Shown piece by piece: positions 28,247 through 63,920 of a stretch of 64,000 nt of DNA. Source of the DNA: Escherichia coli. GTDB lineage: Bacteria > Pseudomonadota > Gammaproteobacteria > Enterobacterales > Enterobacteriaceae. Under the pieces are notes generated by a model. The model was not told the origin of the DNA, ran no database searches, and saw only the letters and a list, made by a program, of their open reading frames with translations. Position 1 is the stretch's first letter. Every line of letters starts with the position of its first letter. The position numbers and the translations under genes were made by a program. Location of the stretch: assembly GCF_048403405.1 (NCBI RefSeq), contig NZ_CP183129.1. The stretch is one strand, 5' to 3'.

Positions 28247-29008
28247 TTAATCGGCTATGATTAAACGCGTCGATAAGGACGCAAGCGTTCTACGCGTCTG
28301 CCCATCAAGCTGATTATCCGTAATAATCTCTGTCAGTTCATTAAGATGCGCGATATTAAACAGCGACCATGAACCGTATTTTGAGCTGTCAGCCAGGAGA
28401 ATTTTGCGCGAAGCATGCGCGATAAGATCGCGTTTTAGTGCGGCTTTCTCTTCCGTGGGTGCTGTAATACCCTTTTCAAGATCCCAGCTGTTACAGCTTA
28501 AAAATGCCACGTCCGGCCAGGTATTTTGCAGCAATTTACGACCATGTTCGCCAATGCAGGACTGGCTGGAGTCGTCGATACGTCCACCGATAATCGTCAC
28601 TTCAATCTGCTTGAATTCAGCCAAAAAAAGCGCGATATGCAGGTCGCTGGTGATCACGCGAAGCGGTAAATGTGTAATCTGCCGCGCAAGTTCAATCATT
28701 GTCGTACCGGCATCAAGGACGACGGAATCCCCCGCTTTGACCATTGACGCCGCTGCGCTGGCGATGGCATGTTTTTCCGCCAGGCTGCGCTGCATTTTCT
28801 CATGGGTAGTCGGTTGGGTAGGAATAAACCGGTTGAGGGTCACACCGCCGTGTGTACGGCTGATAACACCCTGCTCATCGAGTTTTATCAGGTCTCGACG
28901 AATCGTGGCCGGCGACGCATTGGTTACCGCCACCAGCTCATCAACGGTGACCAGATTATGGCTTTTCAGGTAATCCATGATCTGCTCTAACCGGTTATAT
29001 CCCTTCAT
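28247..29008 (-). CDS. DeoR-family transcriptional regulator (island gene)
   Basis: 253 aa with N-terminal HTH ([37 protein letters not shown]) and a DeoR-type C-terminal sugar-phosphate sensor domain. Its start codon lies 1 nt from the stop of the upstream PdxA-family gene. Confidence 0.8.
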
Positions 29009-29009
29009 T

Positions 29010-29996
29010 TTATTCTCGCGAAATCTGCATTGCTAACTGGATGGAAACTGCCATGCTCTCAGACTTGGCTTTTCCTGTCCAGGCAATATCAAACGCGGTG
29101 CCGTGGTCGGCAGAAGTGCGAATAAATGGCAACCCGGCGGTGATATTCACCCCATCATAAAATCCAAGCAGTTTTAAAGGGATATGCCCCTGATCGTGGT
29201 ACATAGCCACTACCATATCGAATAGCCCTTCATGGCATTGCATAAACACGGTATCTGGCGGGCACGGGCCAGTAACATCAATATCTTCGGCCTGCATTGC
29301 TTCAATCGCAGGCGCGATAATCTCGATTTCTTCAGTGCCGAATAAACCGTGTTCCCCTGCATGTGGATTTACACCCGCCACGGCAATACGCGGACGCTCA
29401 ATACCAACACGTTTCAGGAAGTGGTTCGCAACTCGAATAACCGTTTTGACCCTTTCACCATTCAAAGTATCCAGGAATTTACGCAGTGAGATATGCGTCG
29501 AAATATGGATAACCTTGAGCTTATCGGTATAGAGCACCATCGCGTACTCTTTGCTGCCGGTAAGATGGGCCAGCAATTCCGTATGCCCCGGATAGTTATG
29601 CCCGCCAAGATGCAACGCTTCTTTATTCAGCGGCGCAGTGGCTATGGCTTTCACCTCGCCTGATAAGGCCAGGGCCGTTGCACGTTTGATACAGCGATAC
29701 GCTAAATCGCCTGCCGCAGCCTGTACCACTCCGGGTGTCAGCGCATCGGGGTTAGCCAGCGGCTCATCCATCACGTTAATCACGCCGGGAGCAAAATGGG
29801 CGTCGCACACCTTTTCAATGACGCGTAACTCTGCCTTCGGCGTGATATTCATCGCCATAATACGTCTCAGCGTGCGCACACAGCCCACCACCACCACCGG
29901 GGCACCAGCAAGCCCGGCTTCGCTCAGGGATTTAATAATGATCTCCGGGCCAATACCCGCCGGGTCGCCCATCGTTACCGCAATAATATTATTCAC
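29010..29996 (-). CDS. PdxA-family NAD-dependent dehydrogenase (PdxA2-like)
   Basis: 328 aa; N-terminus [22 protein letters not shown] matches the PdxA GxPxGIGPE signature, and [11 protein letters not shown] matches the conserved metal-binding His region. Confidence 0.8.
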
Positions 29997-31227
29997 TACG
30001 CTTCTCCTCGATAAAATTCAGAACCTGATGCAACGTGGTCTCATCGCCAAACCCACCGGCTTTCGTCATCACCGAACGGGACCAGACGCCGCCCAGAAAG
30101 TGACCGTATGGAACGCATTGCGCCACCTTCGCCGTAATACGAAATCCGGTCGCGCCTAACGCACTGGCTGTTGCCATTGCGACATCACCACCAGAGAGAT
30201 AAAGCGCATCGGGCATTGCGCGAAGCAGAACTTGCCGGGTAAGTTCGCCAAGAAACCGGCAAATTTTTTCCCCAAGCGCAGCGCGACTCATCTGCCAACG
30301 CTGGCAAAGGGTGTCGATCTGGTGCCTTGCTACAGAATCGTTACAGGTGTGGACAATGCAGTGGTCGCCTTTCTGCAAGGCCTGCACAATACGCGCGTCA
30401 TAGTCACTGGCATTGCCTGCCAGAATGTGTTCAACATCGACGTATATCTGTGTGATACGTGGGTGTGAATGAAGTGTGGCGATCTGCCGTTGAGCGATTT
30501 CGCTCATTGAACCAATAATGGCCAGCACGGTGGGTGGCGGCATAATCGTGGAGCGCCGGGCAACGGCATCACAAATACCAGCGGAGCCGACCAGCAGCAG
30601 CGGTTGTTTAGCCTGCATCACAGCGGCAGCGATGCGATCCAGGTCGCTGTCCGTCTGCGCATCTATCACGCCAATCCACGGTTGCTCATAAGACAAATGG
30701 CTGAGCTGAGAAACCGTAACGGGCTGGCATGGAATGGCCGTCTGCAACCGGATGATGTCCGCAATTCGGGCGCTCAATACCGGGGTTTTCGGATCGCTGG
30801 CAAACTCGGTTTCCGTTATCCGCACACCGTTTACCCAACACTCACCGGCCACTGTGGTCCTTCCCGCCTGAGGAAATGCGGGGGCAACCACTGCGCCCGT
30901 TATACCGCATGCCTTCATCAGGGCTTCAATTTCTGCGCCAATATTGCCTCGCAGCGTGGAATCTATCTTTTTAATCACGAGCGGAGGGTTATTCGCCAGA
31001 GGGAGATGACTCATCAGCGAGGTTATTTTCATCGCCGCCAGCTTAGGATCCATCGCCCGGCTGTCGCTGTTAATCACCCATACGCTGGCATCACCGCGAT
31101 AAGGCATTTCAAAGGCCACATCAACTGTATGCCCCACCTGCGCCAGGCTTACCCCCGCGTCATTGGCTCCCGTGAAATCATCGGCAACGACGAGAATGCT
31201 CGGCTTAGTGATTCCCTTTTCCATCAT
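29989..31227 (-). CDS. DUF1537-family four-carbon acid-sugar kinase
   Basis: N-terminal signature VVADDFTGANDAG characteristic of OtnK/DtnK-type kinases; 8-nt overlap with the downstream PdxA-family gene. Start chosen at the ATG preceded by GGAG (MMEKGITKPS...); the track ORF starts 13 codons upstream. Confidence 0.75.
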   Translation of the reverse strand: MMEKGITKPSILVVADDFTGANDAGVSLAQVGHTVDVAFEMPYRGDASVWVINSDSRAMDPKLAAMKITSLMSHLPLANNPPLVIKKIDSTLRGNIGAEIEALMKACGITGAVVAPAFPQAGRTTVAGECWVNGVRITETEFASDPKTPVLSARIADIIRLQTAIPCQPVTVSQLSHLSYEQPWIGVIDAQTDSDLDRIAAAVMQAKQPLLLVGSAGICDAVARRSTIMPPPTVLAIIGSMSEIAQRQIATLHSHPRITQIYVDVEHILAGNASDYDARIVQALQKGDHCIVHTCNDSVARHQIDTLCQRWQMSRAALGEKICRFLGELTRQVLLRAMPDALYLSGGDVAMATASALGATGFRITAKVAQCVPYGHFLGGVWSRSVMTKAGGFGDETTLHQVLNFIEEKRSE

Positions 31228-31264
31228 CACTCCAGGTTGTTTTATGATAACAATGATTATATTC

Positions 31265-31278
31265 AATCACGATTGATT
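31265..31278. promoter_or_regulatory. Operator-like inverted repeat AATCA-cgat-TGATT in the island divergent promoter
   Basis: Read directly; shares the TGATT/AATCA half-site with the second palindrome at 31360..31375. Confidence 0.4.
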
Positions 31279-31359
31279 AAATGTGAGCAAGCTCAAGTTA
31301 TTAATCACTCGAATAAATTATAAAATTAGACCATGTTACGTAGGCTACGGCATTTTGAA

Positions 31360-31375
31360 TGATTGAATTCAATCA
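31360..31375. promoter_or_regulatory. Perfect 16-bp palindrome TGATTGAATTCAATCA in the island divergent promoter
   Basis: Read directly; lies about 20 bp upstream of the Fe-ADH GTG start, consistent with a repressor operator. Confidence 0.45.
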
Positions 31376-31393
31376 CCAGAAGAGAGGTTATTT

Positions 31394-32551
31394 GTGGTAA
31401 TTATCAATAGCACGATACTGAGCGGCGCAGGCGCTATCCCTTCCCTGACGTCGCTCTTACCCGACATCAGAAAAATGCTGCTGGTCACTGACCGTAATAT
31501 TGCGCAGCTCGACGGTGTGCAGCAGATTCGCGCCTTACTGGAAAAGCACTGCCCGCAGGTTAACGTTATCGATAATGTGCCCGCAGAGCCCACGCATCAT
31601 GATGTGCGCCAGCTAATGGACGCCCCTGGCGATGCCTCTTTTGATGTGGTGGTCGGGATCGGCGGTGGCAGCGTGTTGGATGTGGCGAAGCTGCTATCGG
31701 TGCTTTGCCATCCACAATCACCAGGGCTGGATGCGCTGCTTGCGGGTGAAAAACCGACTCAGAGGGTGCAATCATGGTTGATTCCTACAACCGCCGGAAC
31801 CGGCTCAGAAGCCACGCCGAATGCGATTCTGGCAATCCCTGAGCAAAGCACGAAGGTGGGTATTATTTCCCCGGTGCTGTTACCAGACTATGTGGCGCTT
31901 TTCCCGGAACTGACCACCAGCATGCCCGCGCATATTGCGGCGTCCACGGGCATTGATGCTCTTTGCCACTTACTGGAGTGTTTTACCGCGACCGTGGCAA
32001 ATCCGGTCAGCGATAACGCGGCGCTGACTGGGTTAAGTAAGCTTTTCCGGCACATTCAACCCGCCGTGAACGATCCTCAGGATCTGCGCGCAAAACTGGA
32101 AATGCTGTGGGCGTCTTACTATGGCGGCGTAGCGATAACCCATGCGGGCACGCATCTCGTTCATGCGCTCTCCTACCCGTTAGGTGGCAAATATCATCTG
32201 CCGCATGGCGTCGCGAATGCCATCTTGCTGGCGCCGTGCATGGCGTTTGTTCGCCCCTGGGCGGTCGAGAAATTTGCCCGGGTCTGGGATTGCATTCCCG
32301 ATGCGGAAACCGCCCTGAGCGCGGAAGAAAAATCTCATGCCCTGGTGGCCTGGCTACAGGCATTAGTCAATCAACTCAAGCTACCCAACAATCTCGCGGA
32401 TCTCGGCGTACCGCCAGAGGATATTGCCTCTCTTAGCGAGGCGGCACTGAACGTGAAGCGCCTTATGAACAATGCGCCGTGCCAGCTTGATCTACAGGAC
32501 GTACAGGCCATTTACCAAACACTGTTTCCGCAACATCAATTTAAGGAATAA
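31394..32551 (+). CDS. Iron-containing (group III) alcohol dehydrogenase family oxidoreductase
   Basis: 385 aa; NAD-binding GGGSxxD motif (VGIGGGSVLDVAKLL) and conserved His cluster (HALSYPLGGKYHLPHGVANA). GTG start preceded by GAGAGG. Confidence 0.8.
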   Translation: MVIINSTILSGAGAIPSLTSLLPDIRKMLLVTDRNIAQLDGVQQIRALLEKHCPQVNVIDNVPAEPTHHDVRQLMDAPGDASFDVVVGIGGGSVLDVAKLLSVLCHPQSPGLDALLAGEKPTQRVQSWLIPTTAGTGSEATPNAILAIPEQSTKVGIISPVLLPDYVALFPELTTSMPAHIAASTGIDALCHLLECFTATVANPVSDNAALTGLSKLFRHIQPAVNDPQDLRAKLEMLWASYYGGVAITHAGTHLVHALSYPLGGKYHLPHGVANAILLAPCMAFVRPWAVEKFARVWDCIPDAETALSAEEKSHALVAWLQALVNQLKLPNNLADLGVPPEDIASLSEAALNVKRLMNNAPCQLDLQDVQAIYQTLFPQHQFKE

Positions 32552-32554
32552 ATC

Positions 32555-33442
32555 ATGCCGAAAACCATTGAAGGTGTATTAACCGCCATCGTCACCCCGT
32601 TTACCGCGACCGGCAGTCTGAATATCCCGGCGTTAAAAGTGCAGGTGAATCGTCAACTGGAAGCGGGTAACGCGATTTTTTGCGGCGGCACCAACGGCGA
32701 GTTTTTTGTGTTGAATGAACAGGAGAAGCTCAGCGTTACGCAAACCTGCGTGGATGAAGTGGCTGGTCGTGCGCCGGTCGTGGCACACATTGGCGAGATC
32801 TCGACGCGCGAAACGATTCGTCTGGGTCAGCAGATTGAAAAACTTGGCGTAGATGCTGTGTCGGTCATTACCCCTTACTTCGTACCGCTGAAACAGGAAG
32901 AGTTGATTGCGCATTACAGCGCAATTGCCGACGCGCTGAGCATTCCGATGTTTCTCTATAACATCCCGGCCCGCACTGGCAATACGATCCAGCCGGAAAC
33001 CGCGCGTGCTCTGGCGTCGCATCCCAATATCATTGGGATTAAAGACAGCGCCGGAAGCGACGAAAGCCTGAAGGGTTTTCTCGATGCTGTGCGCAACATT
33101 GACGGCTTTAATGTACTCAACGGCCCGGATTCGCTGATCCATAAAGGGTTTGTCGAGGGGTGTTCAGCCTGTATCTCTGGGCTCGCCAACGTCGCACCGC
33201 GGGAAATCAATGCTATCTGGTCTCGCGTCCATGCCGGTGATATTGAAGGGTCTTATGAAGCACAGGAGAGTGTAACGGGCCTGCGTACCGACCTTTATAA
33301 AGTAGCGTTCTCCCCGGCTGCGGTGAAAAAAGCGTTGCAGCTTATGGGGCATGATGTTGGTGATAGCCGCTACGCGGTTAATTTCACGCCTGAACAGATC
33401 AGCGAGATTCAACAAATTATTCGTCATTATAACATTAATTAA
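32555..33442 (+). CDS. DHDPS/N-acetylneuraminate-lyase-family class I aldolase or dehydratase
   Basis: 295 aa; GTNGEF motif (CGGTNGEFFVLNEQEK), the Tyr-containing ITPYF segment and the Schiff-base lysine context IGIKDSAG, typical of DapA/NanA-family enzymes. Confidence 0.8.
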   Translation: MPKTIEGVLTAIVTPFTATGSLNIPALKVQVNRQLEAGNAIFCGGTNGEFFVLNEQEKLSVTQTCVDEVAGRAPVVAHIGEISTRETIRLGQQIEKLGVDAVSVITPYFVPLKQEELIAHYSAIADALSIPMFLYNIPARTGNTIQPETARALASHPNIIGIKDSAGSDESLKGFLDAVRNIDGFNVLNGPDSLIHKGFVEGCSACISGLANVAPREINAIWSRVHAGDIEGSYEAQESVTGLRTDLYKVAFSPAAVKKALQLMGHDVGDSRYAVNFTPEQISEIQQIIRHYNIN

Positions 33443-33501
33443 ATTAACTCTATTATCCAGCCCGCGATAAAGTTTAGATAAAGAGAATAAAGGATTACTC
33501 C

Positions 33502-34260
33502 ATGTTTTTGTGGTTTATGCAGCCAGATATCTGGCTCACTTTAATTACCCTCACCTTTCTGGAAATTATTCTTGGGGTGGATAATATTATTTTTCTTTCA
33601 CTGGTGGTGGCAAAACTTCCGTTATCACAACAAAATATGGCGCGTAAACTGGGTTTAAGCTGCGCGATGATTATGCGGATATTATTGCTGATATCCATTG
33701 CGTGGCTTTCACATATTACCCAGCCGCTTTTTACCGTGCTGACGCTGGAGATTTCGTTCCGCACGTTGATTCTGCTCGGGGGCGGGCTGTTCCTGATTTA
33801 TAAAGCGATACAGGAGATACGCGAAGAGCTGTCGCCCGCGCAGGAAGACGAACATGGCAGCGGATCGCGGCAACTGTCGTTGTGCGGTGCCATCGTACAG
33901 ATAATGCTGCTCGATATCGTGTTTAGCCTGGATTCGGTGATCACCGCCGTCGGCCTTTCTCAGCATATATTTATCATGATTGCCGCCGTAATGATTGCCG
34001 TCGGTGTCATGATGTTTGCGGCGAAAACAATTGGTGATTTCGTTAACGCCACGCCGTCAATAAAAATACTGGCGTTAACCTTTTTATTATTTGTCGGTGT
34101 ATTGCTGGTTGCCGATAGTCTCAACATTCATATTGCCAAAGAGTATCTCTACTTCGCGATATTTTTCTCATTAAGTGTTGAGACACTCAATATTATCCGT
34201 GAAAGAAGAAATAAAAAAGTTTCGACATTGATCGAAACGCATGAATCGCACTCGCATTAA
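33502..34260 (+). CDS. TerC-family integral membrane protein
   Basis: 252 aa, multiple TM segments, paired TerC motifs GVDNIIF and LDIVFSLDSV. Confidence 0.7.
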   Translation: MFLWFMQPDIWLTLITLTFLEIILGVDNIIFLSLVVAKLPLSQQNMARKLGLSCAMIMRILLLISIAWLSHITQPLFTVLTLEISFRTLILLGGGLFLIYKAIQEIREELSPAQEDEHGSGSRQLSLCGAIVQIMLLDIVFSLDSVITAVGLSQHIFIMIAAVMIAVGVMMFAAKTIGDFVNATPSIKILALTFLLFVGVLLVADSLNIHIAKEYLYFAIFFSLSVETLNIIRERRNKKVSTLIETHESHSH

Positions 34261-34295
34261 TAAATCTATTACCGACTTTAAGATGGAGTCTAACT

Positions 34296-35465
34296 ATGTC
34301 TGTAGCCCTTATTCGTGACGGCGTCATCCGTCCATCCGAAAACGATTCGCATGTGCTTACCGCCATGCTGCCCTCGTCCTGCCCACAAAACCACGCGGCG
34401 AATATTCTGCCTTTGCCGGATGGCGCGTTAATGTGCGTCTGGTTTGCGGGAACGCAGGAAGGTATTGCCGATATTTCTGTCTGGGGATCGCGATTGCCCG
34501 CTGGCGGGATGCAGTGGAGCGATGCGGTCAAACTTTCCCACGATGACACGCGTTCAGAGCAAAACCCAGTGCTGTTTCTCGCGCCGGATAACGTGCTGTG
34601 GCTGCTATGGACCGCACAAATATCCGGGAATCAGGACACCGCCATCGTCCGCTACCGTAAGTCAGACGACCTCGGACAAACCTGGGGCGAGATTGCCACG
34701 CTGCTCGATAAACCCGGCACGTTCATTCGCCAGCCGATCACGGTGCTTGATAACGGCAACTGGCTGCTGCCCGTCTTTTATTGCCGTACCCAACCCGGTG
34801 AAAAATGGGTCGGCAATGATGATATCAGCGCAGTGAAAATTTCCGCTGACGGTGGTCACTCCTGGCGCGATGTCGTGGTGCCGCAAAGTCTCGGCTGCGT
34901 TCATATGAATATCACAATGCTGCACGACAGTACGTTGGTTGCTCTCTTTCGAAGCCGTTGGGCAGACAACATCTATATCAGCCATTCAGTGGACAACGGC
35001 GAGAGTTGGTCGGTGCCGCAAGCTACCGAATTGCCCAACAACAATTCGTCTATTCAGGTAACGACGCTTGCCAGCGGCGAACTGGCGCTGGTGTACAACG
35101 CGATGAGTGCGGCAGGCGCAGTAGAACGTCGCGCGTCGCTTTATGACGAAATCGACGATGGCGACGACAGCCGCAAAGAACCGACAGCCGTCGGACGCTC
35201 CGCTTTCTGGGGGGCCCCACGCGCGCCGATGACGGTAGCGATTTCTGCCGATGGTGGGAAAAGCTGGCCGTGGCGGCGCAATCTCGATGAAGGCGACGGC
35301 TACTGCATGACCAACAATTCCCTGGAAAAGCTAAATCGTGAGTTCTCCTACCCCAGCATCAAACAAAGCCCGGACGGTACGCTACATATCGCTTACACCT
35401 GGTGGCGTCAGGCCATCAAGTACGTGCGCATCTCCCCCGAGTGGGTTAAGGGGCAGGCATCATGA
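34296..35465 (+). CDS. BNR/Asp-box repeat protein (sialidase-like beta-propeller), apparently cytoplasmic
   Basis: 389 aa with four Asp-box motifs (SDDLGQTW, SADGGHSW, SVDNGESW, SADGGKSW). The N-terminus MSVALIRDGVIRPSENDSHV has no signal-peptide features. Confidence 0.75.
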   Translation: MSVALIRDGVIRPSENDSHVLTAMLPSSCPQNHAANILPLPDGALMCVWFAGTQEGIADISVWGSRLPAGGMQWSDAVKLSHDDTRSEQNPVLFLAPDNVLWLLWTAQISGNQDTAIVRYRKSDDLGQTWGEIATLLDKPGTFIRQPITVLDNGNWLLPVFYCRTQPGEKWVGNDDISAVKISADGGHSWRDVVVPQSLGCVHMNITMLHDSTLVALFRSRWADNIYISHSVDNGESWSVPQATELPNNNSSIQVTTLASGELALVYNAMSAAGAVERRASLYDEIDDGDDSRKEPTAVGRSAFWGAPRAPMTVAISADGGKSWPWRRNLDEGDGYCMTNNSLEKLNREFSYPSIKQSPDGTLHIAYTWWRQAIKYVRISPEWVKGQAS

Positions 35466-35932
35466 TTATCGGTAATCTCAACCATTTGTCGCTGGCGGGG
35501 CTTCCCGCCTGGGTGAGAAATATTCTGCTGTGCCCGGAGTGTTCGTTATCGGCGTTATCCGCCAGAGAGGACGGTCGCTGGCAACCTGAAGGATGTCGGT
35601 GGTTCTGCACGCTGGGAACTTCAGACACGCAACCCGCCGAACTCCGCCATACGGAGTATCACCATCTGTGGGCCGATATCCAGGTGGTGATTACTGGTTG
35701 TGAGGGCATTAATGCGGGAACGCGGCCCATCGCTCGCGAAAACGATGAAGAACGTAAGCCCGATCTGTTTATCGCCCCATCCCCTGAAAACAGTGTCGCC
35801 ATCACTCTACACCCCGGTGATTTCGCCGTCTTTATGCCTGAGGAACCTCACCAGGCGCTGTGCGCGATTGGCGCGGCTACGTCAGTACGCAAAGCGGTCT
35901 TTAAGGTACCGCGCGACATGCTGGAAGCCTAA
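35462..35932 (+). CDS. YhcH/YjgK/YiaL (DUF386) family protein
   Basis: 156 aa; C-terminal segment LHPGDFAVFMPEEPHQALCAIG resembles the conserved PGxFxVFxPxEPH motif of the YhcH/EbgC-like family. 4-nt overlap with the upstream BNR gene. Confidence 0.7.
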   Translation: MIIGNLNHLSLAGLPAWVRNILLCPECSLSALSAREDGRWQPEGCRWFCTLGTSDTQPAELRHTEYHHLWADIQVVITGCEGINAGTRPIARENDEERKPDLFIAPSPENSVAITLHPGDFAVFMPEEPHQALCAIGAATSVRKAVFKVPRDMLEA

Positions 35933-35945
35933 AAGGAGAGAAAAA

Positions 35946-37226
35946 ATGACAATGGAAATGATCCTGGCATTAGGAATACTGGTCCTGATGATCGTGCTGA
36001 TCATGTCGGACAAAATGCCATTTGGCGCACCGCCACTGCTTGCGTGTTTATTGCTGGTTGTCTCGGGACTTTCGACCGTTCAACAGGCTTTTGCCGGATT
36101 CGTCAATCCAAGCGTGGTGATGATTGCAGGGTTTATGGTGGTCATGGCAGCGCTACAAAAAACCCGGCTTATCAGCAACGTTAAATCTGCGATGATAAGC
36201 CTGGTCAATAAAGGCAGTTACCGCAGCTACGGGCTGTTGTTAGTCATTGTTATGCTGGGTGCCAGTCTTGCAGGCACCGGCGCGACCGGTTATTACGTGC
36301 TGATTCTGTCGCTGGTATCCACCATTCCGTACAGTAAAAAGCTACCAACATCGAAATTAATGATGCCCCTGGGATTTGCCACCAACCACCCGCTTCTTCC
36401 TATCAATCTCGCGCTTCTCTTTGGCGTTACGGCGACCGTACTCGAAACCGCGGGTTTTCATCAGGAGATTTCGATGGGGCGCTTTGCGCTGGTGAATCTC
36501 ATCATGTCAGCGGCGTTCCTCGCATGGAGTCTTATTGCCTACCGTTTTCTTCCGGATCATCCCATTGCGGATGCTTCCGAGGATGCGCTGGCGGCACGCG
36601 AGGAAACGTTTAACGCCCTTCCTGCCTGGAAAGAATATTGCACTATTGCCGCATTCGCTGTCAGCGTTATCGGCATGATGCTAATGAACATTCTGGGAAA
36701 TATCGCCTTCGTTATTCCGGGTCTTGCGGGTGCGTTTGTTCTGATGATCGATGTACTGGACTTTAAAGAAGTTCGCGATCATATGGGAGCGCCGGTCATT
36801 TTAATGATGGCGGGGGTGATCGGTGTAGCTGATGCACTGGCGGGCACCGGCTTTACGGCGATGGTTGGCGATGCCGTTGCAGGTGTGCTCGGTTCTGGCG
36901 TCTCACCGTTTGTATTTATTGTCGCCTTTGCTTTGCTTACCAGTACCTGCGCCACCTTCACGGGTTCGAATATGGGGTCTGTTTATATTTTTGCCCCCAT
37001 CGCCATTGCCGCCTGTACCAGCCTTGGGCTTAACCCGACCGCTGCAGCGATTGCGGTGGTGATTTCAGGCTGGAACGGCGGCTATATGCCTATTGACGGA
37101 ATGCCAGCCATGATCCTCGGAATGGGGAAATACAAACTTCCCGAATTCTGGGTGTTCTCTGTACCAATGTATCTCATCCGCATTCTGGCGCTTTGTGCAG
37201 GCGCTGTTTTTATCTTCCCAATGTAA
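35946..37226 (+). CDS. Ion-transporter-superfamily anion permease (GntP/CitMHS/DASS-like), putative sugar-acid importer
   Basis: About 426 aa of polytopic membrane protein from the ATG at 35946 preceded by AGGAGA. The track ORF 35700..37226 carries an 82-codon non-membrane extension that overlaps the YhcH gene in another frame. Confidence 0.7.
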   Translation: MTMEMILALGILVLMIVLIMSDKMPFGAPPLLACLLLVVSGLSTVQQAFAGFVNPSVVMIAGFMVVMAALQKTRLISNVKSAMISLVNKGSYRSYGLLLVIVMLGASLAGTGATGYYVLILSLVSTIPYSKKLPTSKLMMPLGFATNHPLLPINLALLFGVTATVLETAGFHQEISMGRFALVNLIMSAAFLAWSLIAYRFLPDHPIADASEDALAAREETFNALPAWKEYCTIAAFAVSVIGMMLMNILGNIAFVIPGLAGAFVLMIDVLDFKEVRDHMGAPVILMMAGVIGVADALAGTGFTAMVGDAVAGVLGSGVSPFVFIVAFALLTSTCATFTGSNMGSVYIFAPIAIAACTSLGLNPTAAAIAVVISGWNGGYMPIDGMPAMILGMGKYKLPEFWVFSVPMYLIRILALCAGAVFIFPM

Positions 37227-37234
37227 TCTCAGAC

Positions 37235-43887: not shown

Positions 43888-45552
43888 ATGTGTTCAATTT
43901 TTGGCGTATTCGATATCAAAACAGACGCAGTTGAGCTGCGTAAGAAAGCACTCGAACTGTCACGCCTGATGCGTCATCGTGGCCCGGACTGGTCCGGTAT
44001 TTATGCCAGCGATAACGCCATTCTCGCCCACGAACGTCTGTCAATTGTTGACGTTAACGCGGGGGCGCAACCTCTCTACAACCAACAAAAAACTCATGTG
44101 CTGGCGGTAAACGGTGAAATCTACAACCACCAGGCACTGCGCGCCGAATATGGCGATCGTTATCAGTTCCAGACCGGATCTGACTGCGAAGTGATCCTCG
44201 CGCTGTATCAGGAAAAAGGGCCGGAATTTCTCGACGACTTGCAGGGCATGTTTGCCTTTGCCCTGTACGACAGCGAAAAAGATGCATATCTGATTGGTCG
44301 CGACCATCTGGGGATCATCCCACTGTATATGGGCTATGACGAACACGGTCAGCTGTATGTGGCCTCAGAAATGAAAGCCCTGGTGCCAGTTTGCCGCACG
44401 ATTAAAGAGTTCCCGGCGGGGAGCTATTTGTGGAGCCAGGACGGCGAAATCCGTTCTTATTATCACCGCGACTGGTTCGACTTTGATGCAGTGAAAGATA
44501 ACGTGACCGACAAAAACGAGCTGCGTCAGGCACTGGAAGATTCCGTTAAAAGCCATCTGATGTCTGACGTTCCTTACGGTGTGCTGCTATCTGGTGGCCT
44601 GGATTCCTCAATCATTTCCGCGATCACCAAGAAATACGCCGCCCGTCGCGTGGAAGATCAGGAACGCTCTGAAGCCTGGTGGCCGCAATTACACTCCTTT
44701 GCTGTAGGTCTGCCGGGTTCACCGGATCTGAAAGCAGCCCAGGAAGTGGCAAACCATCTGGGCACGGTGCATCACGAAATTCACTTCACTGTACAGGAAG
44801 GTCTGGACGCCATCCGCGACGTGATTTACCACATCGAAACCTATGATGTGACCACTATTCGCGCTTCAACACCGATGTATTTAATGTCGCGGAAGATCAA
44901 GGCGATGGGCATTAAAATGGTGCTGTCCGGTGAAGGTTCTGATGAAGTGTTTGGCGGTTATCTTTACTTCCACAAAGCACCGAATGCCAAAGAACTGCAT
45001 GAAGAGACGGTGCGTAAACTGCTGGCCCTGCATATGTATGACTGCGCGCGTGCCAACAAAGCGATGTCAGCCTGGGGCGTGGAAGCACGCGTTCCGTTCC
45101 TCGACAAAAAATTCCTCGACGTGGCGATGCGCATTAACCCACAGGATAAAATGTGCGGTAACGGCAAAATGGAAAAACACATCCTGCGTGAATGTTTTGA
45201 GTCGTACTTGCCCGCAAGTGTGGCCTGGCGGCAGAAAGAGCAGTTCTCCGATGGCGTCGGTTACAGTTGGATCGACACCCTGAAAGAAGTAGCGGCACAG
45301 CAGGTTTCTGATCAACAGCTGGAAACTGCCCGCTTCCGCTTCCCGTACAACACGCCGACGTCCAAAGAAGCGTATCTGTACCGCGAGATCTTTGAAGAAC
45401 TGTTCCCGCTTCCGAGCGCCGCTGAGTGCGTGCCGGGCGGCCCTTCCGTCGCGTGTTCTTCCGCTAAAGCGATCGAGTGGGATGAGGCGTTCAAGAAAAT
45501 GGACGATCCGTCTGGTCGTGCGGTTGGTGTTCACCAGTCGGCGTATAAGTAA
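43888..45552 (+). CDS. asnB: Asparagine synthetase B (glutamine-hydrolysing)
   Basis: Start at ATG 43888 (MCSIFGVFDIK, catalytic Cys2), preceded by GGAGAAGG; PP-loop SGGLDSS present; 554 aa. The track ORF is extended 27 codons upstream. Confidence 0.95.
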   Translation: MCSIFGVFDIKTDAVELRKKALELSRLMRHRGPDWSGIYASDNAILAHERLSIVDVNAGAQPLYNQQKTHVLAVNGEIYNHQALRAEYGDRYQFQTGSDCEVILALYQEKGPEFLDDLQGMFAFALYDSEKDAYLIGRDHLGIIPLYMGYDEHGQLYVASEMKALVPVCRTIKEFPAGSYLWSQDGEIRSYYHRDWFDFDAVKDNVTDKNELRQALEDSVKSHLMSDVPYGVLLSGGLDSSIISAITKKYAARRVEDQERSEAWWPQLHSFAVGLPGSPDLKAAQEVANHLGTVHHEIHFTVQEGLDAIRDVIYHIETYDVTTIRASTPMYLMSRKIKAMGIKMVLSGEGSDEVFGGYLYFHKAPNAKELHEETVRKLLALHMYDCARANKAMSAWGVEARVPFLDKKFLDVAMRINPQDKMCGNGKMEKHILRECFESYLPASVAWRQKEQFSDGVGYSWIDTLKEVAAQQVSDQQLETARFRFPYNTPTSKEAYLYREIFEELFPLPSAAECVPGGPSVACSSAKAIEWDEAFKKMDDPSGRAVGVHQSAYK

Positions 45553-45863
45553 GAAATGCGGTACTGCCCCGGAGAAATCCGGGGCTGTTTTAGTTATTGA
45601 GCTGCTTGTTGATTCTGATATGCAGTAAGGAAATGTTCCGGGTTTGCCACATCACTGTTTGACAACTCATCACTGTAGGCCAGTACTTCATAGATTAATT
45701 TCCCACCACTATTGTTGAATTCCGAATTTCATCCTGTATGACAAAAGAATGGCTGTAGGGTGGGGAAAAAACACAAAGTAAACAATAATTGACGAATATA
45801 GCGCCACGCTGTTCGCAACCTAACCAAACAGTCACTTTCGAGCAATTTTCCTTGAAAAAGAGG

Positions 45864-45892
45864 TTGACGCTGCAAGGCTCTATACGCATAAT
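45864..45892 (+). promoter_or_regulatory. metT tRNA-operon promoter (-35 ttgacg, 17-bp spacer, -10 cataat, GC-rich discriminator)
   Basis: Read directly upstream of the first tRNA; the GC-rich discriminator gcgccccgc is typical of stringently controlled stable-RNA promoters. Confidence 0.55.
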
Positions 45893-45931
45893 GCGCCCCG
45901 CAACGCCGATAAGGTATCGCGAAAAAAAGAT

Positions 45932-46008
45932 GGCTACGTAGCTCAGTTGGTTAGAGCACATCACTCATAATGATGGGGTCACAGGTTCGAATCCCGTCGT
46001 AGCCACCA
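45932..46008 (+). tRNA. metT: tRNA-Met (CAU), elongator
   Basis: 77-nt cloverleaf ggctacgtagctcagttggttagagcacatcactCATaatgatg...agccacca with encoded CCA. Confidence 0.9.
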
Positions 46009-46016
46009 TCTTTTTT

Positions 46017-46101
46017 GCGGGAGTGGCGAAATTGGTAGACGCACCAGATTTAGGTTCTGGCGCCGCAAGGTGTGCGAGTTCAAGTCTCGCCTCCCGCACC
46101 A
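46017..46101 (+). tRNA. leuW: tRNA-Leu (UAG)
   Basis: 85-nt type II tRNA with long variable arm; anticodon loop ...agatTTAGgtt...; ends gcacca. Confidence 0.9.
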
Positions 46102-46124
46102 TTCACCAGAAAGCGTTGTACGGA

Positions 46125-46199
46125 TGGGGTATCGCCAAGCGGTAAGGCACCGGTTTTTGATACCGGCATTCCCTGGTTCGAATCCAGGTACCCCAGCCA
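46125..46199 (+). tRNA. glnU: tRNA-Gln (UUG)
   Basis: tggggtatcgccaagcggtaaggcaccggtttTTGataccgg...ccccagcca. Confidence 0.9.
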
Positions 46200-46233
46200 T
46201 CTTCTTCGAGTAAGCGGTTCACCGCCCGGTTAT

Positions 46234-46308
46234 TGGGGTATCGCCAAGCGGTAAGGCACCGGTTTTTGATACCGGCATTCCCTGGTTCGAATCCAGGTAC
46301 CCCAGCCA
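46234..46308 (+). tRNA. glnW: tRNA-Gln (UUG)
   Basis: Identical copy of the previous tRNA-Gln(UUG). Confidence 0.9.
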
Positions 46309-46323
46309 TCGAAGAAACAATCT

Positions 46324-46400
46324 GGCTACGTAGCTCAGTTGGTTAGAGCACATCACTCATAATGATGGGGTCACAGGTTCGAATCCCGTCGTAGCCACCA
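46324..46400 (+). tRNA. metU: tRNA-Met (CAU), elongator
   Basis: Identical copy of the metT sequence. Confidence 0.9.
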
Positions 46401-46448
46401 AATTCTGAATGTGTCGAATATGTTCGGCAAATTCAAAAACCAATTTGT

Positions 46449-46523
46449 TGGGGTATCGCCAAGCGGTAAGGCACCGGATTCTGATTCCGGCATTCCGAGG
46501 TTCGAATCCTCGTACCCCAGCCA
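46449..46523 (+). tRNA. glnV: tRNA-Gln (CUG)
   Basis: tggggtatcgccaagcggtaaggcaccggattCTGattccgg...ccccagcca. Confidence 0.9.
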
Positions 46524-46550
46524 ATTTATTCAAGACGCTTACCTTGTAAG

Positions 46551-46625
46551 TGCACCCAGTTGGGGTATCGCCAAGCGGTAAGGCACCGGATTCTGATTCC
46601 GGCATTCCGAGGTTCGAATCCTCGT
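46551..46625 (+). tRNA. glnX: tRNA-Gln (CUG)
   Basis: Identical copy of the previous tRNA-Gln(CUG). Confidence 0.9.
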
Positions 46626-46629
46626 ACCC

Positions 46630-46662
46630 CAGCCACATTAAAAAAGCTCGCTTCGGCGAGCT
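46630..46662 (+). terminator. Rho-independent terminator of the tRNA operon (aaaaaagctcgcttcggcgagctttttgctttt)
   Basis: Stem gctcgc/gcgagc with ttcg loop and a T-run. Confidence 0.75.
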
Positions 46663-46757
46663 TTTTGCTTTTATGAAATCCGAAAAAATCACCCATACAT
46701 AGTGGTCGTTAATGACCAGTGATACATTGCCTGCCTTCATAACAAAAGGATCTTGCA

Positions 46758-47342
46758 ATGAATTATCAGCTATTCTCACCATTCTTTACCAAAGTCATCA
46801 TGCTGCTTATCGCATTGCTTTGCATTGTTCTTGCCTCATTTGGTATTTCTGCCCCATTTTGTTACATCGTTTTTATCGGCATCATTTTCCCCGTTGCTAT
46901 ATCAATGCGCATACACCGTCTCAATGAAACAGGAACAGCACTCACACTAACCGAAAGCTCACACTGGATCGTTTACATCCATGGTTTTCCAGCTGAGGAA
47001 CAACGTGAAGTTTTGAAAAACCCCTGTTTCTGGTCAACAGAAAGAGTGAAACAGTTTTTCCTTCGCGGTCTTGCTGGCAAGGTTATTCTTCAACTCGCCT
47101 GCCTTGCACTTCTGGTCAATGAATATTTCCGCTCAACACCAGGTTCCGGGCAAGACTTACTCGCAGCAGGCGTGCTGTTTTTTATTTTGTTTTCGATAAG
47201 CAAAAATTTCTGGACGATGTATCTTCTCGCCACAGATAAATGGCAGTGCGAATCCCTGACCACCACCAGCGGTAGCCTTTGGTATCAGGGATTTCTGTGT
47301 AAAGGAAACAGAAGAGTTACGCTGTTTTCGCGGCTGGTGTAA
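46758..47342 (+). CDS. Hypothetical small membrane protein in an AT-rich tRNA-adjacent segment
   Basis: 194-aa ORF with two or three hydrophobic segments at the N-terminus (LLIALLCIVLASFGISAPFCYIVFIGIIFPVAI); convergent with ubiF with a 6-bp gap. The composition is visibly more AT-rich than its neighbours. I do not recognise the product. Confidence 0.45.
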   Translation: MNYQLFSPFFTKVIMLLIALLCIVLASFGISAPFCYIVFIGIIFPVAISMRIHRLNETGTALTLTESSHWIVYIHGFPAEEQREVLKNPCFWSTERVKQFFLRGLAGKVILQLACLALLVNEYFRSTPGSGQDLLAAGVLFFILFSISKNFWTMYLLATDKWQCESLTTTSGSLWYQGFLCKGNRRVTLFSRLV

Positions 47343-47348
47343 CAGCTA

Positions 47349-48524
47349 CTACAACCCTAACGCATATTTCAGCGCCTGACGTTTCAACATGCCAGCACGC
47401 TCCGCCGCCATCAAACCAAGATTACGCACAAAACGCAGTGGTGGCAGATTATTGCTGAATCCGGCATAGAACAGATCCATACCGCTCTGCATAATGAAGT
47501 TATCCGCCATGCGCCGCATCTGGTAACGCTTGAGGATCGGATAACTGGCCCACGCTTCGCCATAGCTGCGAGCGTTGACCAGAACGTCAATCAGGGCATC
47601 GACATCACGATAACCAAGATTCACCCCCTGCCCCGCCAGCGGATGGATGGTATGCGCGGCATCGCCCACCAGCGCAAGCCCCGGCTGCACATACTGCAAC
47701 GCATGGCGGCGCGTCAGCGGAAAAGCGCCAGCGGCAAGCGGTGTTACATACCCAAGACGCGACGGGAAATGCTTCGCGATTTCCGCCTGTAACTGCGCCA
47801 TATTCATATTCTGCAACTGGCGAATGCGTGCCGGAGAGTCATACCACACCAGCGATGCCCAGTTATCAAACAACGGCAGAAACGCACGAGGTCCATCCGG
47901 GGTAAATTGCTGCCAGGTGCTGTCGCCGGGATCGTTCTCACACTGTACGCTAATTAACATACACGACTGTGCATACTGCCAGGCATGAACGCCAATTCCC
48001 GCCATCTGCCGCACCTGGGAATTTGCGCCGTCGGCACCAATCACCAGCTTCGCGCGGATCGTTTCACCGCCCTTCAGTTCCAGCTCCTGAAGATCATTAT
48101 GGCGATGCAGCGCAATCAGCGAGCCTGGCACACGTAACGTTACTTTCGGATGCGCTTCCAGCGCCTGCCACAGCGCCTGTTGCAGAACAGTGTTTTCCAC
48201 CATGTAGCCAAGCACAGGCAGCTTTAATTCGGCTGCATCAAACACCACATGCGCCGTTTCCCACTCCCAAGTTTCCAGTCTGCGGTAAGGATGGCAACGC
48301 ATAGCCTGTACCGCGTCCCAGACGCCTAAACCTTTAAGCAATGATACCGAAGCCGCACTGATCGCCGAGATCCGCACGTCCGGCTGGCTATCAACAACAA
48401 ACGTCGCAGATTGGGCATGTTCGATAACCGTTACCGAAAATCCGTGCTGAGCCAGTCCCAGCGCCAGTGCGCCGCCGACCATTCCTCCGCCGACAATGGC
48501 AATTTCCGTTGGTTGATTTGTCAT
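47349..48524 (-). CDS. ubiF: 2-octaprenyl-3-methyl-6-methoxy-1,4-benzoquinol hydroxylase (flavin monooxygenase)
   Basis: Start set at MTNQPTEIAIVGGGMVGGALALG (FAD GxGxxG fold); about 391 aa. The track ORF begins 2 codons upstream at a TTG. Confidence 0.93.
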   Translation of the reverse strand: MTNQPTEIAIVGGGMVGGALALGLAQHGFSVTVIEHAQSATFVVDSQPDVRISAISAASVSLLKGLGVWDAVQAMRCHPYRRLETWEWETAHVVFDAAELKLPVLGYMVENTVLQQALWQALEAHPKVTLRVPGSLIALHRHNDLQELELKGGETIRAKLVIGADGANSQVRQMAGIGVHAWQYAQSCMLISVQCENDPGDSTWQQFTPDGPRAFLPLFDNWASLVWYDSPARIRQLQNMNMAQLQAEIAKHFPSRLGYVTPLAAGAFPLTRRHALQYVQPGLALVGDAAHTIHPLAGQGVNLGYRDVDALIDVLVNARSYGEAWASYPILKRYQMRRMADNFIMQSGMDLFYAGFSNNLPPLRFVRNLGLMAAERAGMLKRQALKYALGL

Positions 48525-62889: not shown

Positions 62890-63920
62890 TGATTCGGTTG
62901 TACCCGGAACAACTCCGCGCGCAGCTCAATGAAGGGCTGCGCGCGGCGTATCTTTTACTTGGTAACGATCCTCTGTTATTGCAGGAAAGCCAGGACGCTA
63001 TTCGTCAGGTAGCTGCGGTACAAGGATTCGAAGAACACCACACTTTTTCCATTGATCCCAACACTGACTGGAATGCGATCTTTTCGTTATGCCAGGCCAT
63101 GAGTCTGTTTGCCAGTCGACAAACGCTATTGCTGTTGTTATCAGAAAACGGACCGAATGCGGCGATTAATGAACAACTTCTCACACTCACCGGACTTCTG
63201 CATGACGACCTGCTGTTGATCGTCCGCGGCAATAAATTAAGCAAAGCGCAAGAAAATGCCGCCTGGTTTACTGCTCTTGCGAATCGCAGCGTGCAGGTGA
63301 CCTGTCAGACACCGGAGCAGGCTCAGCTTCCCCGTTGGGTTGCTGCGCGTGCAAAACAGCTCAACTTAGAACTGGATGACGCGGCGAATCAGGTGCTCTG
63401 CTACTGTTATGAAGGTAACCTGCTGGCGCTGGCTCAGGCACTGGAGCGTTTATCGCTACTCTGGCCAGACGGCAAACTGACATTACCTCGCGTTGAACAG
63501 GCGGTGAATGATGCCGCGCATTTCACCCCTTTTCATTGGGTTGATGCTTTGTTGATGGGAAAAAGTAAGCGCGCGTTGCATATTCTTCAGCAACTGCGTC
63601 TGGAAGGCAGCGAACCGGTTATTTTGTTGCGCACATTACAACGTGAACTGTTGTTACTGGTTAACCTGAAACGCCAGTCTGCCCATACGCCACTGCGTGC
63701 GTTGTTTGATAAGCATCGGGTATGGCAGAACCGCCGGGGCATGATGGGCGAGGCGTTAAATCGCTTAAGCCAGCCGCAGTTACGTCAGGCCGTGCAACTC
63801 CTGACACGAACGGAACTCACCCTCAAACAAGATTACGGTCAGTCAGTGTGGGCAGAGCTGGAAGGGTTATCTCTTCTGTTGTGCCATAAACCCCTGGCGG
63901 ACGTATTTATCGACGGTTGA
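62889..63920 (+). CDS. holA: DNA polymerase III delta subunit
   Basis: 343 aa starting [30 protein letters not shown]; start overlaps the lptE stop. Confidence 0.95.

Follow-up and report, generated by a model that had tools for sequence, protein, structure and literature searches.

The window, i.e. the whole analysed stretch of 64,000 nucleotides of Escherichia coli DNA (contig NZ_CP183129.1), contains at 45932-46635 a cluster of seven tRNA genes which is the known E. coli metT (supB-E) seven-tRNA operon, and nothing counts against this identification. The operon, its identification and its arrangement are already known; the finding is correct and ordinary. The explanation as a whole, comprising the identity of the operon, the mechanism by which it would be expressed and a scenario for the origin of its internal repetition, is given a probability of about 97 %. 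The original description is reportedly that of Nakajima, Ozeki and Shimura in Cell in 1981. There is no discovery value in finding the operon again: its sequence dates from 1981, and its transcription, its processing and its essential role have been under study ever since. The practical value lies in the correct explanation of repetition seen in a scan and in the avoidance of false CRISPR or mobile-element calls.

ARAGORN calls seven tRNA genes, all on the plus strand and in one cluster, and no further tRNA in the 64-kb window. The identical seven tRNAs are called by Infernal with the Rfam model RF00005, at 57.6-71.1 bits and E values of 4e-11 to 8e-15, the gathering score being 29. The cluster begins with metT (45932-46008), the gene of an elongator tRNA-Met(CAU) of 77 nt, followed by leuW (46017-46101), which encodes a tRNA-Leu(UAG) of 85 nt with a long variable arm. 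Two genes for tRNA-Gln(UUG), glnU (46125-46199, 75 nt) and glnW (46234-46308), precede a second gene for elongator tRNA-Met(CAU), metU (46324-46400), and two genes for tRNA-Gln(CUG), glnV (46449-46523) and glnX (46561-46635), complete the operon. The co-oriented order is Met(CAU)-Leu(UAG)-Gln(UUG)-Gln(UUG)-Met(CAU)-Gln(CUG)-Gln(CUG) with both programs, and the inter-gene spacers measure 8, 23, 34, 15, 48 and 37 nt. In all seven genes the 3' CCA is encoded in the genome. A repeat finder reports families of four Gln and two Met copies, 75-93 nt long and far above chance. Exact string comparison shows metT to be identical to metU, glnU to glnW and glnV to glnX; that metT and metU encode the identical elongator tRNA-Met is described in the literature (PMC6265465). 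Apart from the seven tRNAs, no family reached its gathering score in an Rfam search of 44500-48000. The sub-threshold matches in this region, Plastid-ycf2 antisense to the tRNAs and rsmX, isrB and istR over the terminator, all lie far under their gathering scores and were dismissed as chance.

The flanking genes are those of K-12. The operon is located downstream of asnB (43888-45552, plus strand), whose terminator-like hairpin lies at 45566-45585, and is convergent with ubiF (47349-48524, minus strand); K-12 has an equal layout. Aligned to K-12 MG1655 (NC_000913.3, 696430-697133), the seven genes show no difference, and the two operons share order, strand, promoter, terminator and the asnB and ubiF flanks. 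They differ at four places over 841 nt, all in leader or spacers: three changes of homopolymer length by 1 nt and one substitution. E. coli strain MS 69-1 and several further genomes match the segment at 100 % identity, and their records annotate asnB, two tRNA-Met, one tRNA-Leu and four tRNA-Gln at this place. At full length (at least 80 % coverage) the operon occurs in 5356 of 5426 complete E. coli genomes, and 5424 of them contain some match. An earlier note on this DNA, made from its letters, had named the seven genes in this order, had called the arrangement known, had held the Met copies to be identical and the Gln copies to be identical in pairs, and had proposed tRNA calling of seven genes as a check. 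The check was passed with ARAGORN as well as with Infernal and Rfam, the string comparison bears out the identities, and names, order and arrangement agree with the K-12 sequence, the flanking genes and the literature (PMC2241853, PMC6265465, PMC11480407). Its range of 45932-46625 begins correctly but cuts the last 10 nt of glnX, as the true 3' end including the encoded CCA is at 46635.

The two tRNA-Gln species, glnU/glnW on the one hand and glnV/glnX on the other, differ at 7 of 75 positions. With standard tRNA numbering equal to the sequence index plus one (position 17 being absent), the difference at index 33 is the wobble base 34, U in the first species and C in the second. Indices 30 and 38 form pair 31:39, which closes the anticodon loop and changes from U-A to A-U. 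In the T stem, pair 50:64 (indices 49 and 63) changes from C-G to G-C and pair 51:63 (indices 50 and 62) from U-A to A-U. All six stem changes are hence compensatory, as three base-pair swaps of which two are in the T stem, and both sequences form one and the same cloverleaf with equal folding energy. The earlier statement that the two species differ only in the anticodon and adjacent positions holds for the wobble base and pair 31:39, but four of the seven differences are located in the T stem, at a distance from the anticodon. For tRNA-Gln1 and tRNA-Gln2, a count of seven differences is what we take to be a classical result of RNA sequencing.

Upstream of metT a sigma-70 promoter is predicted on the plus strand at 45864-45892, with the −35 hexamer TTGACG, a 17-nt spacer and the −10 hexamer CATAAT (10 of 12 consensus matches), immediately preceded by the A-rich tract GAAAAAGAGG. 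When the DNA upstream of the operon was aligned for 16 genera of Enterobacterales (Escherichia to Budvicia), GTTGAC, GCATAAT and the 23-nt block GCATAATGCGCCCCGCAACGCCG proved invariant, in contrast to the promoter spacer and the upstream DNA. Because GTTGAC and this block are invariant while the DNA between and upstream of them varies, there is strong evidence that the TTGACG/CATAAT site would act as the functional promoter of the operon. The discriminator and 5' leader (45893-45931, plus strand) comprise the G+C-rich discriminator GCGCCCCGC and reach metT, and transcription probably starts at about 45899. The 16 nt after the −10 hexamer, GCGCCCCGCAACGCCG (window 45893-45915), are invariant in all 16 genera. 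This conserved stretch exceeds the usual length of a discriminator, which suggests that the early leader may have an additional conserved role. A G+C-rich discriminator is an established hallmark of stringently controlled stable-RNA promoters, and growth-rate and stringent control of the operon promoter would be expected. Downstream of glnX, a terminator scan gives a Rho-independent terminator at 46641-46675 (plus strand), consisting of the hairpin AAAAAGCTCGC-TTCG-GCGAGCTTTTT and a T-rich tail. Its stem covaries among genera (GCTCGC/GCGAGC, GCCCGC/GCGGGC, GCCCTAC/GTAGGGC and GCCCACC/GGTGGGC), as expected of a genuine Rho-independent terminator. The consensus scans and the 16-genus alignment thus give a single promoter 5' of metT and a Rho-independent terminator 3' of glnX, and spacers of just 8-48 nt leave no room for internal promoters.

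From the one conserved sigma-70 promoter with its G+C-rich discriminator, all seven tRNAs would be transcribed as a single RNA, ending at the terminator about 6 nt past glnX. The terminator would then be cleaved off chiefly by RNase E, with RNase G as backup. Next, RNase P would cut at every tRNA 5' end and thereby separate the units, and 3' exonucleases would trim them to the encoded CCA. Promoter use, stringent control and the order of processing are proposed here from the signals in the DNA together with published work on K-12. There, a full-length transcript of seven tRNAs is known, from which mainly RNase E, backed up by RNase G, takes off the terminator before RNase P separates the units (PMC2241853; PMC7049720), and Northern probes specific for each spacer detected all units in one transcript (PMC2241853). 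RNase P mutants show a metT species of about 125 nt with an unprocessed 5' end (PMC2241853), which is consistent with a leader of roughly 30-40 nt. All metTU, leuW, glnUW and glnVX genes are in the operon and its deletion is impossible without a complementing copy (PMC11480407; PMC6265465). The operon is essential because it is the sole source of elongator tRNA-Met, of both tRNA-Gln isoacceptors and of tRNA-Leu(UAG).

Homology to ordinary E. coli ends at 46675, right past the terminator, and resumes at the stop codon of ubiF. The intervening 46676-47348 (about 0.67 kb) takes the place of the usual REP-like spacer of about 95 nt, which in K-12 lies between terminator and ubiF, and is found in only 9 of 5426 complete E. 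coli genomes. It contains an open reading frame (ORF) of 194 amino acids (46758-47342, plus strand), in which four hydrophobic segments can be recognized by eye and a Pfam search detected no domain. Homologues with 43-61 % identity exist in Buttiauxella, Citrobacter, Intestinirhabdus, Superficieibacter and Kluyvera. Kluyvera, Intestinirhabdus and Buttiauxella carry the homologue in an equal slot and orientation, with the tRNA operon on one side and ubiF on the other; the ORF therefore looks like an ancestral small gene that most E. coli have lost and not like an insertion at a tRNA gene. A small conserved gene for a probable membrane protein, kept by 9 of 5426 E. coli genomes, is of modest interest to specialists. 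Elsewhere in the window, at about 28250-37230, a cluster of about 9 kb lies between glnS and nagE. It encodes a DeoR regulator, a D-threonate 4-phosphate dehydrogenase, a D-threonate kinase and an iron alcohol dehydrogenase, as well as a DHDPS-family protein, TerC, a sialidase-family protein, a YhcH/YjgK/YiaL protein and an SLC13 permease. Since glnS and nagE presumably adjoin in K-12, this cluster looks like an accessory island.

Contracted versions of the array were sought with a 90-nt probe joining leader to trailer, and a shortened operon was found in 28 of 5424 complete E. coli assemblies. ECCTRSRTH03 has Met-Leu-Gln-Met-Gln(CUG), HS13-1 (NZ_CP026491) has Met-Gln(CUG) and N18-04097 has Met-Leu-Gln-Gln(CUG) with a hybrid junction, shapes as expected of unequal recombination or assembly collapse between identical copies. 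NWU_1 (NZ_CP121294) reads Met-1nt-Met-Gln(CUG)-Gln(CUG), NWU_3 (NZ_CP123009) reads Met-Leu-Gln-Gln-6nt-Gln(CUG), and in CEA224S (NZ_CP166080) zero tRNA genes are left at the locus between leader and terminator. In these last three the break points lie 0-6 nt from the borders of tRNA genes and not within homologous repeats. Assembly error is the likeliest explanation of the contracted arrays, because several of the assemblies concerned are without genes deemed essential in the literature. It is improbable that the contractions are real. If they were, natural isolates would survive without tRNA genes thought essential, or hold copies elsewhere, and there would be a mechanism that excises tRNA genes exactly at their ends. 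Contracted arrays in assemblies labelled complete are of modest interest for assembly quality control. Matches to the operon are also filed in a plasmid collection, where many of the records are 0.3-5 Mb in size and resemble mislabelled chromosomes or chromosome fragments; one E. coli plasmid record of 28.8 kb (CP043024) holds a copy of the operon with 93 % identity.

The arrays of other species were surveyed with one genome per species and an exact match to the 3' 45 nt of E. coli tRNA-Met, which gave at least 120 stretches, annotated with ARAGORN; the sample is biased by the exact-match probe and many of the loci are cut at contig ends. The seven genes stand in the E. coli order in Citrobacter, E. 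albertii, Enterobacter, Klebsiella, Kluyvera, Cedecea, Silvania, Phytobacter, Pseudocitrobacter, Hafnia and Edwardsiella hoshinae, and likewise in Intestinirhabdus. Other arrays vary in their Gln genes: three Gln(CUG) occur in Superficieibacter and Pluralibacter, one Gln(CUG) in Serratia, Tatumella and Buttiauxella, one Gln(UUG) in P. gergoviae and Escherichia sp. ESNIH1, and four Gln(UUG) in Serratia silvae. Among the matches listed, the copy number of Gln(UUG) and of Gln(CUG) in Enterobacterales ranges from 1 to 4. Edwardsiella ictaluri lacks the second Met. Budvicia has Met-Leu-Gln-Gln, a gap of 222-237 nt and then Met-Leu-Gln, without Gln(CUG), and Tatumella JGM91 has ...Leu-Gln-Met-Leu-Gln-Met-Gln(CUG). 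The Met-Leu-Gln repeats of these two have identical spacers and may be recent lineage-specific duplications instead of ancestral states. Orbaceae (Gilliamella and relatives) possess Met-Leu-Gln, optionally followed by Leu(CAG) and Gln(UUG) or Gln(CUG). In Vibrio, Photobacterium and relatives Met-Leu-Gln recurs within the array, in some cases six times or more, together with additional Leu genes, and as many as seven Met genes stand in one stretch of Vibrionaceae/Photobacterium among the matches listed. Across the matches listed, Met and Leu keep a distance of about 8 nt, and Leu and Gln one of about 23 nt. Outside Enterobacterales, Leu follows Met in 119 of 123 adjacencies, and a Met directly followed by Gln(CUG) is confined to Enterobacterales (36 cases), both among the matches listed. 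A literature search on Met-Leu-Gln arrays in Vibrio retrieved nothing relevant.

Within one species the tandem copies are as a rule identical, even when they are unlike those of E. coli, e.g. in Klebsiella BIGb0407, Tatumella and Hafnia. Both Gln(UUG) copies of Klebsiella BIGb0407 have C27T/G41A, and both of Tatumella have G5A/C67T. Such agreement speaks for concerted evolution or for local duplications that recurred. For specialists in the evolution of tRNA genes, the recurrence of the Met-Leu-Gln unit in Gammaproteobacteria and the variable number of Gln copies in Enterobacterales hold modest interest.

The internal repetition of the operon consists of the duplicated tRNA genes. Selection on the tRNA preserves the identity of each pair, with gene conversion or repeated local duplication as a probable further cause, and the spacers have meanwhile diverged to randomness. 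The array most likely grew from a Met-Leu-Gln unit widespread in Gammaproteobacteria; in a second unit Leu would have been lost and Gln would have gained the CUG anticodon together with compensatory stem changes in the Enterobacterales lineage, after which each Gln would have been duplicated in tandem. The earlier note had the operon built from duplicated Met-Gln-Gln modules, of which the duplication of tRNA genes stands, but the history of the modules is only partly supported, the spacers being dissimilar and the unit that recurs elsewhere being Met-Leu-Gln. In its explicit form, an ancestral Met-Gln-Gln would have been copied as one block, the first copy would afterwards have received leuW, and the Gln genes of the second would have changed their anticodon. 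The order indeed reads Met-(Leu)-Gln-Gln / Met-Gln-Gln with identical Met genes, about 10 of 16 nt match upstream of metT and metU, and among the matches listed Met is directly followed by Gln(UUG) in Rahnella bruchi, Rouxiella and Salinivibrio costicola. However, this match upstream of the Met genes is A-rich and does not reach significance (p = 0.21). When the spacers were compared by local alignment in eight pairings, each against 2000 shuffles (among them leader with glnW-metU, glnU-glnW with glnV-glnX, the metT-to-glnU spacers with metU-glnV, and leuW with metU-glnV), no pairing between the two halves of the operon rose above the shuffles (p about 0.2-0.84), and a leuW remnant was not detected in the metU-glnV spacer (p = 0.76). 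The resemblance therefore ends at the borders of the tRNA genes and a block duplication is not demonstrable from the window; the identical pairs reflect conservation or concerted evolution of the genes alone, the spacers sharing nothing. Furthermore, the repeated unit outside Enterobacterales is Met-Leu-Gln, with the Met to Leu adjacency in the proportion given above, and the block Met-8-Leu-23-Gln is conserved from Vibrio and Gilliamella to E. coli among the matches listed. An insertion of Leu would thus predate Enterobacterales and yet miss only the second module. We regard the Met-Gln-Gln history as unlikely, although it deserves more weight than the other alternatives considered here. A duplicated Met-Leu-Gln(-Gln) with loss of Leu in copy two would be at least as likely as a duplicated Met-Gln-Gln with gain of Leu in copy one, and we infer that Met-Leu-Gln is a recurrent building block and the second half of the E. 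coli operon most simply a Leu-less copy with a changed Gln anticodon. Given the bias of the exact-match sample, the many loci truncated by a contig end and the possibly recent age of the repeats in Budvicia and Tatumella, this origin is one that we infer and do not reconstruct.

It might also be asked whether every copy counts, as some duplicates could be redundant or decaying pseudogenes with one functional copy per tRNA species. Complete E. coli assemblies with one copy per pair, such as the Met-Leu-Gln-Met-Gln(CUG) of ECCTRSRTH03, would fit this view, and with 1 to 4 copies of either Gln in other genera the copy number is evidently not fixed. Nevertheless, the copies are identical, fold into cloverleaves and are conserved in 5356 genomes, and the spacer-specific Northern probes found all units in one transcript (PMC2241853). 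A decaying copy should gather substitutions, of which none are seen, and we consider such decay very improbable. The earlier note had rightly set aside CRISPR and mobile elements, and a reading of the repetition as one of these, or as a tandem satellite or an integrated element, has a negligible probability. It could appeal to repeats of 75-93 nt with unique spacers of 15-48 nt between them, to tRNA 3' ends as classic integration sites and to the 0.67 kb past the terminator in just 9 of 5426 E. coli genomes. But each repeat is a complete tRNA of 57-71 bits, two different repeat families are interleaved, Tandem Repeats Finder reported no array, and the asnB and ubiF flanks are without a cas, integrase or transposase gene. 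A CRISPR array, with one repeat of about 23-55 nt, spacers of similar length and cas genes nearby, was rejected, for the units are tRNA genes of 75-85 nt of three kinds. An element integrated at a tRNA gene (genomic island or prophage), and with it the reading of the rare DNA past glnX as an integration site, was likewise discarded, there being no integrase, no att-like repeat and no Pfam domain, and the extra DNA amounting to 0.67 kb with one ORF that is syntenic in Kluyvera, Intestinirhabdus and Buttiauxella. A duplicate of the glnX 3' end, sought downstream with a 22-nt probe, is absent, with 0.00 matches expected in shuffles. A match of 19 of 22 nt to the glnX 3' end (TCGAATCCTTGTACCGCAGCTA) lies at 63010-63031 on the minus strand, antisense inside holA; the shuffles gave none. 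It has neither an upstream T-stem partner nor a tRNA call and is probably a chance resemblance.

With the arrays of Vibrionaceae, Photobacterium and Orbaceae, the E. coli metT operon has in common the 3' half of tRNA-Met (a consequence of how the search was designed), the Leu(UAG) and Gln(UUG) partners, the order Met-Leu-Gln and similarly short spacers. In contrast to E. coli, the whole Met-Leu-Gln unit is repeated and additional Leu genes are present in Vibrionaceae/Photobacterium, Gln(CUG) is absent from Vibrionales among the matches listed, and in Gilliamella Gln(CUG) comes after Leu(CAG) and not after Met. Within E. coli, tandem identical copies in one transcript and separation of the units by RNase P are shared with other tRNA operons, namely valV-valW, leuQPV, metZWV, argQZYV-serV and lysT-valT-lysW-valZ-lysYZQ (PMC7049720, PMC11480407). 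Unlike in those operons, the terminator of the metT transcript needs to be removed by RNase E or RNase G first (PMC2241853), and the metT operon is unusual in containing every gene of three tRNA specificities.
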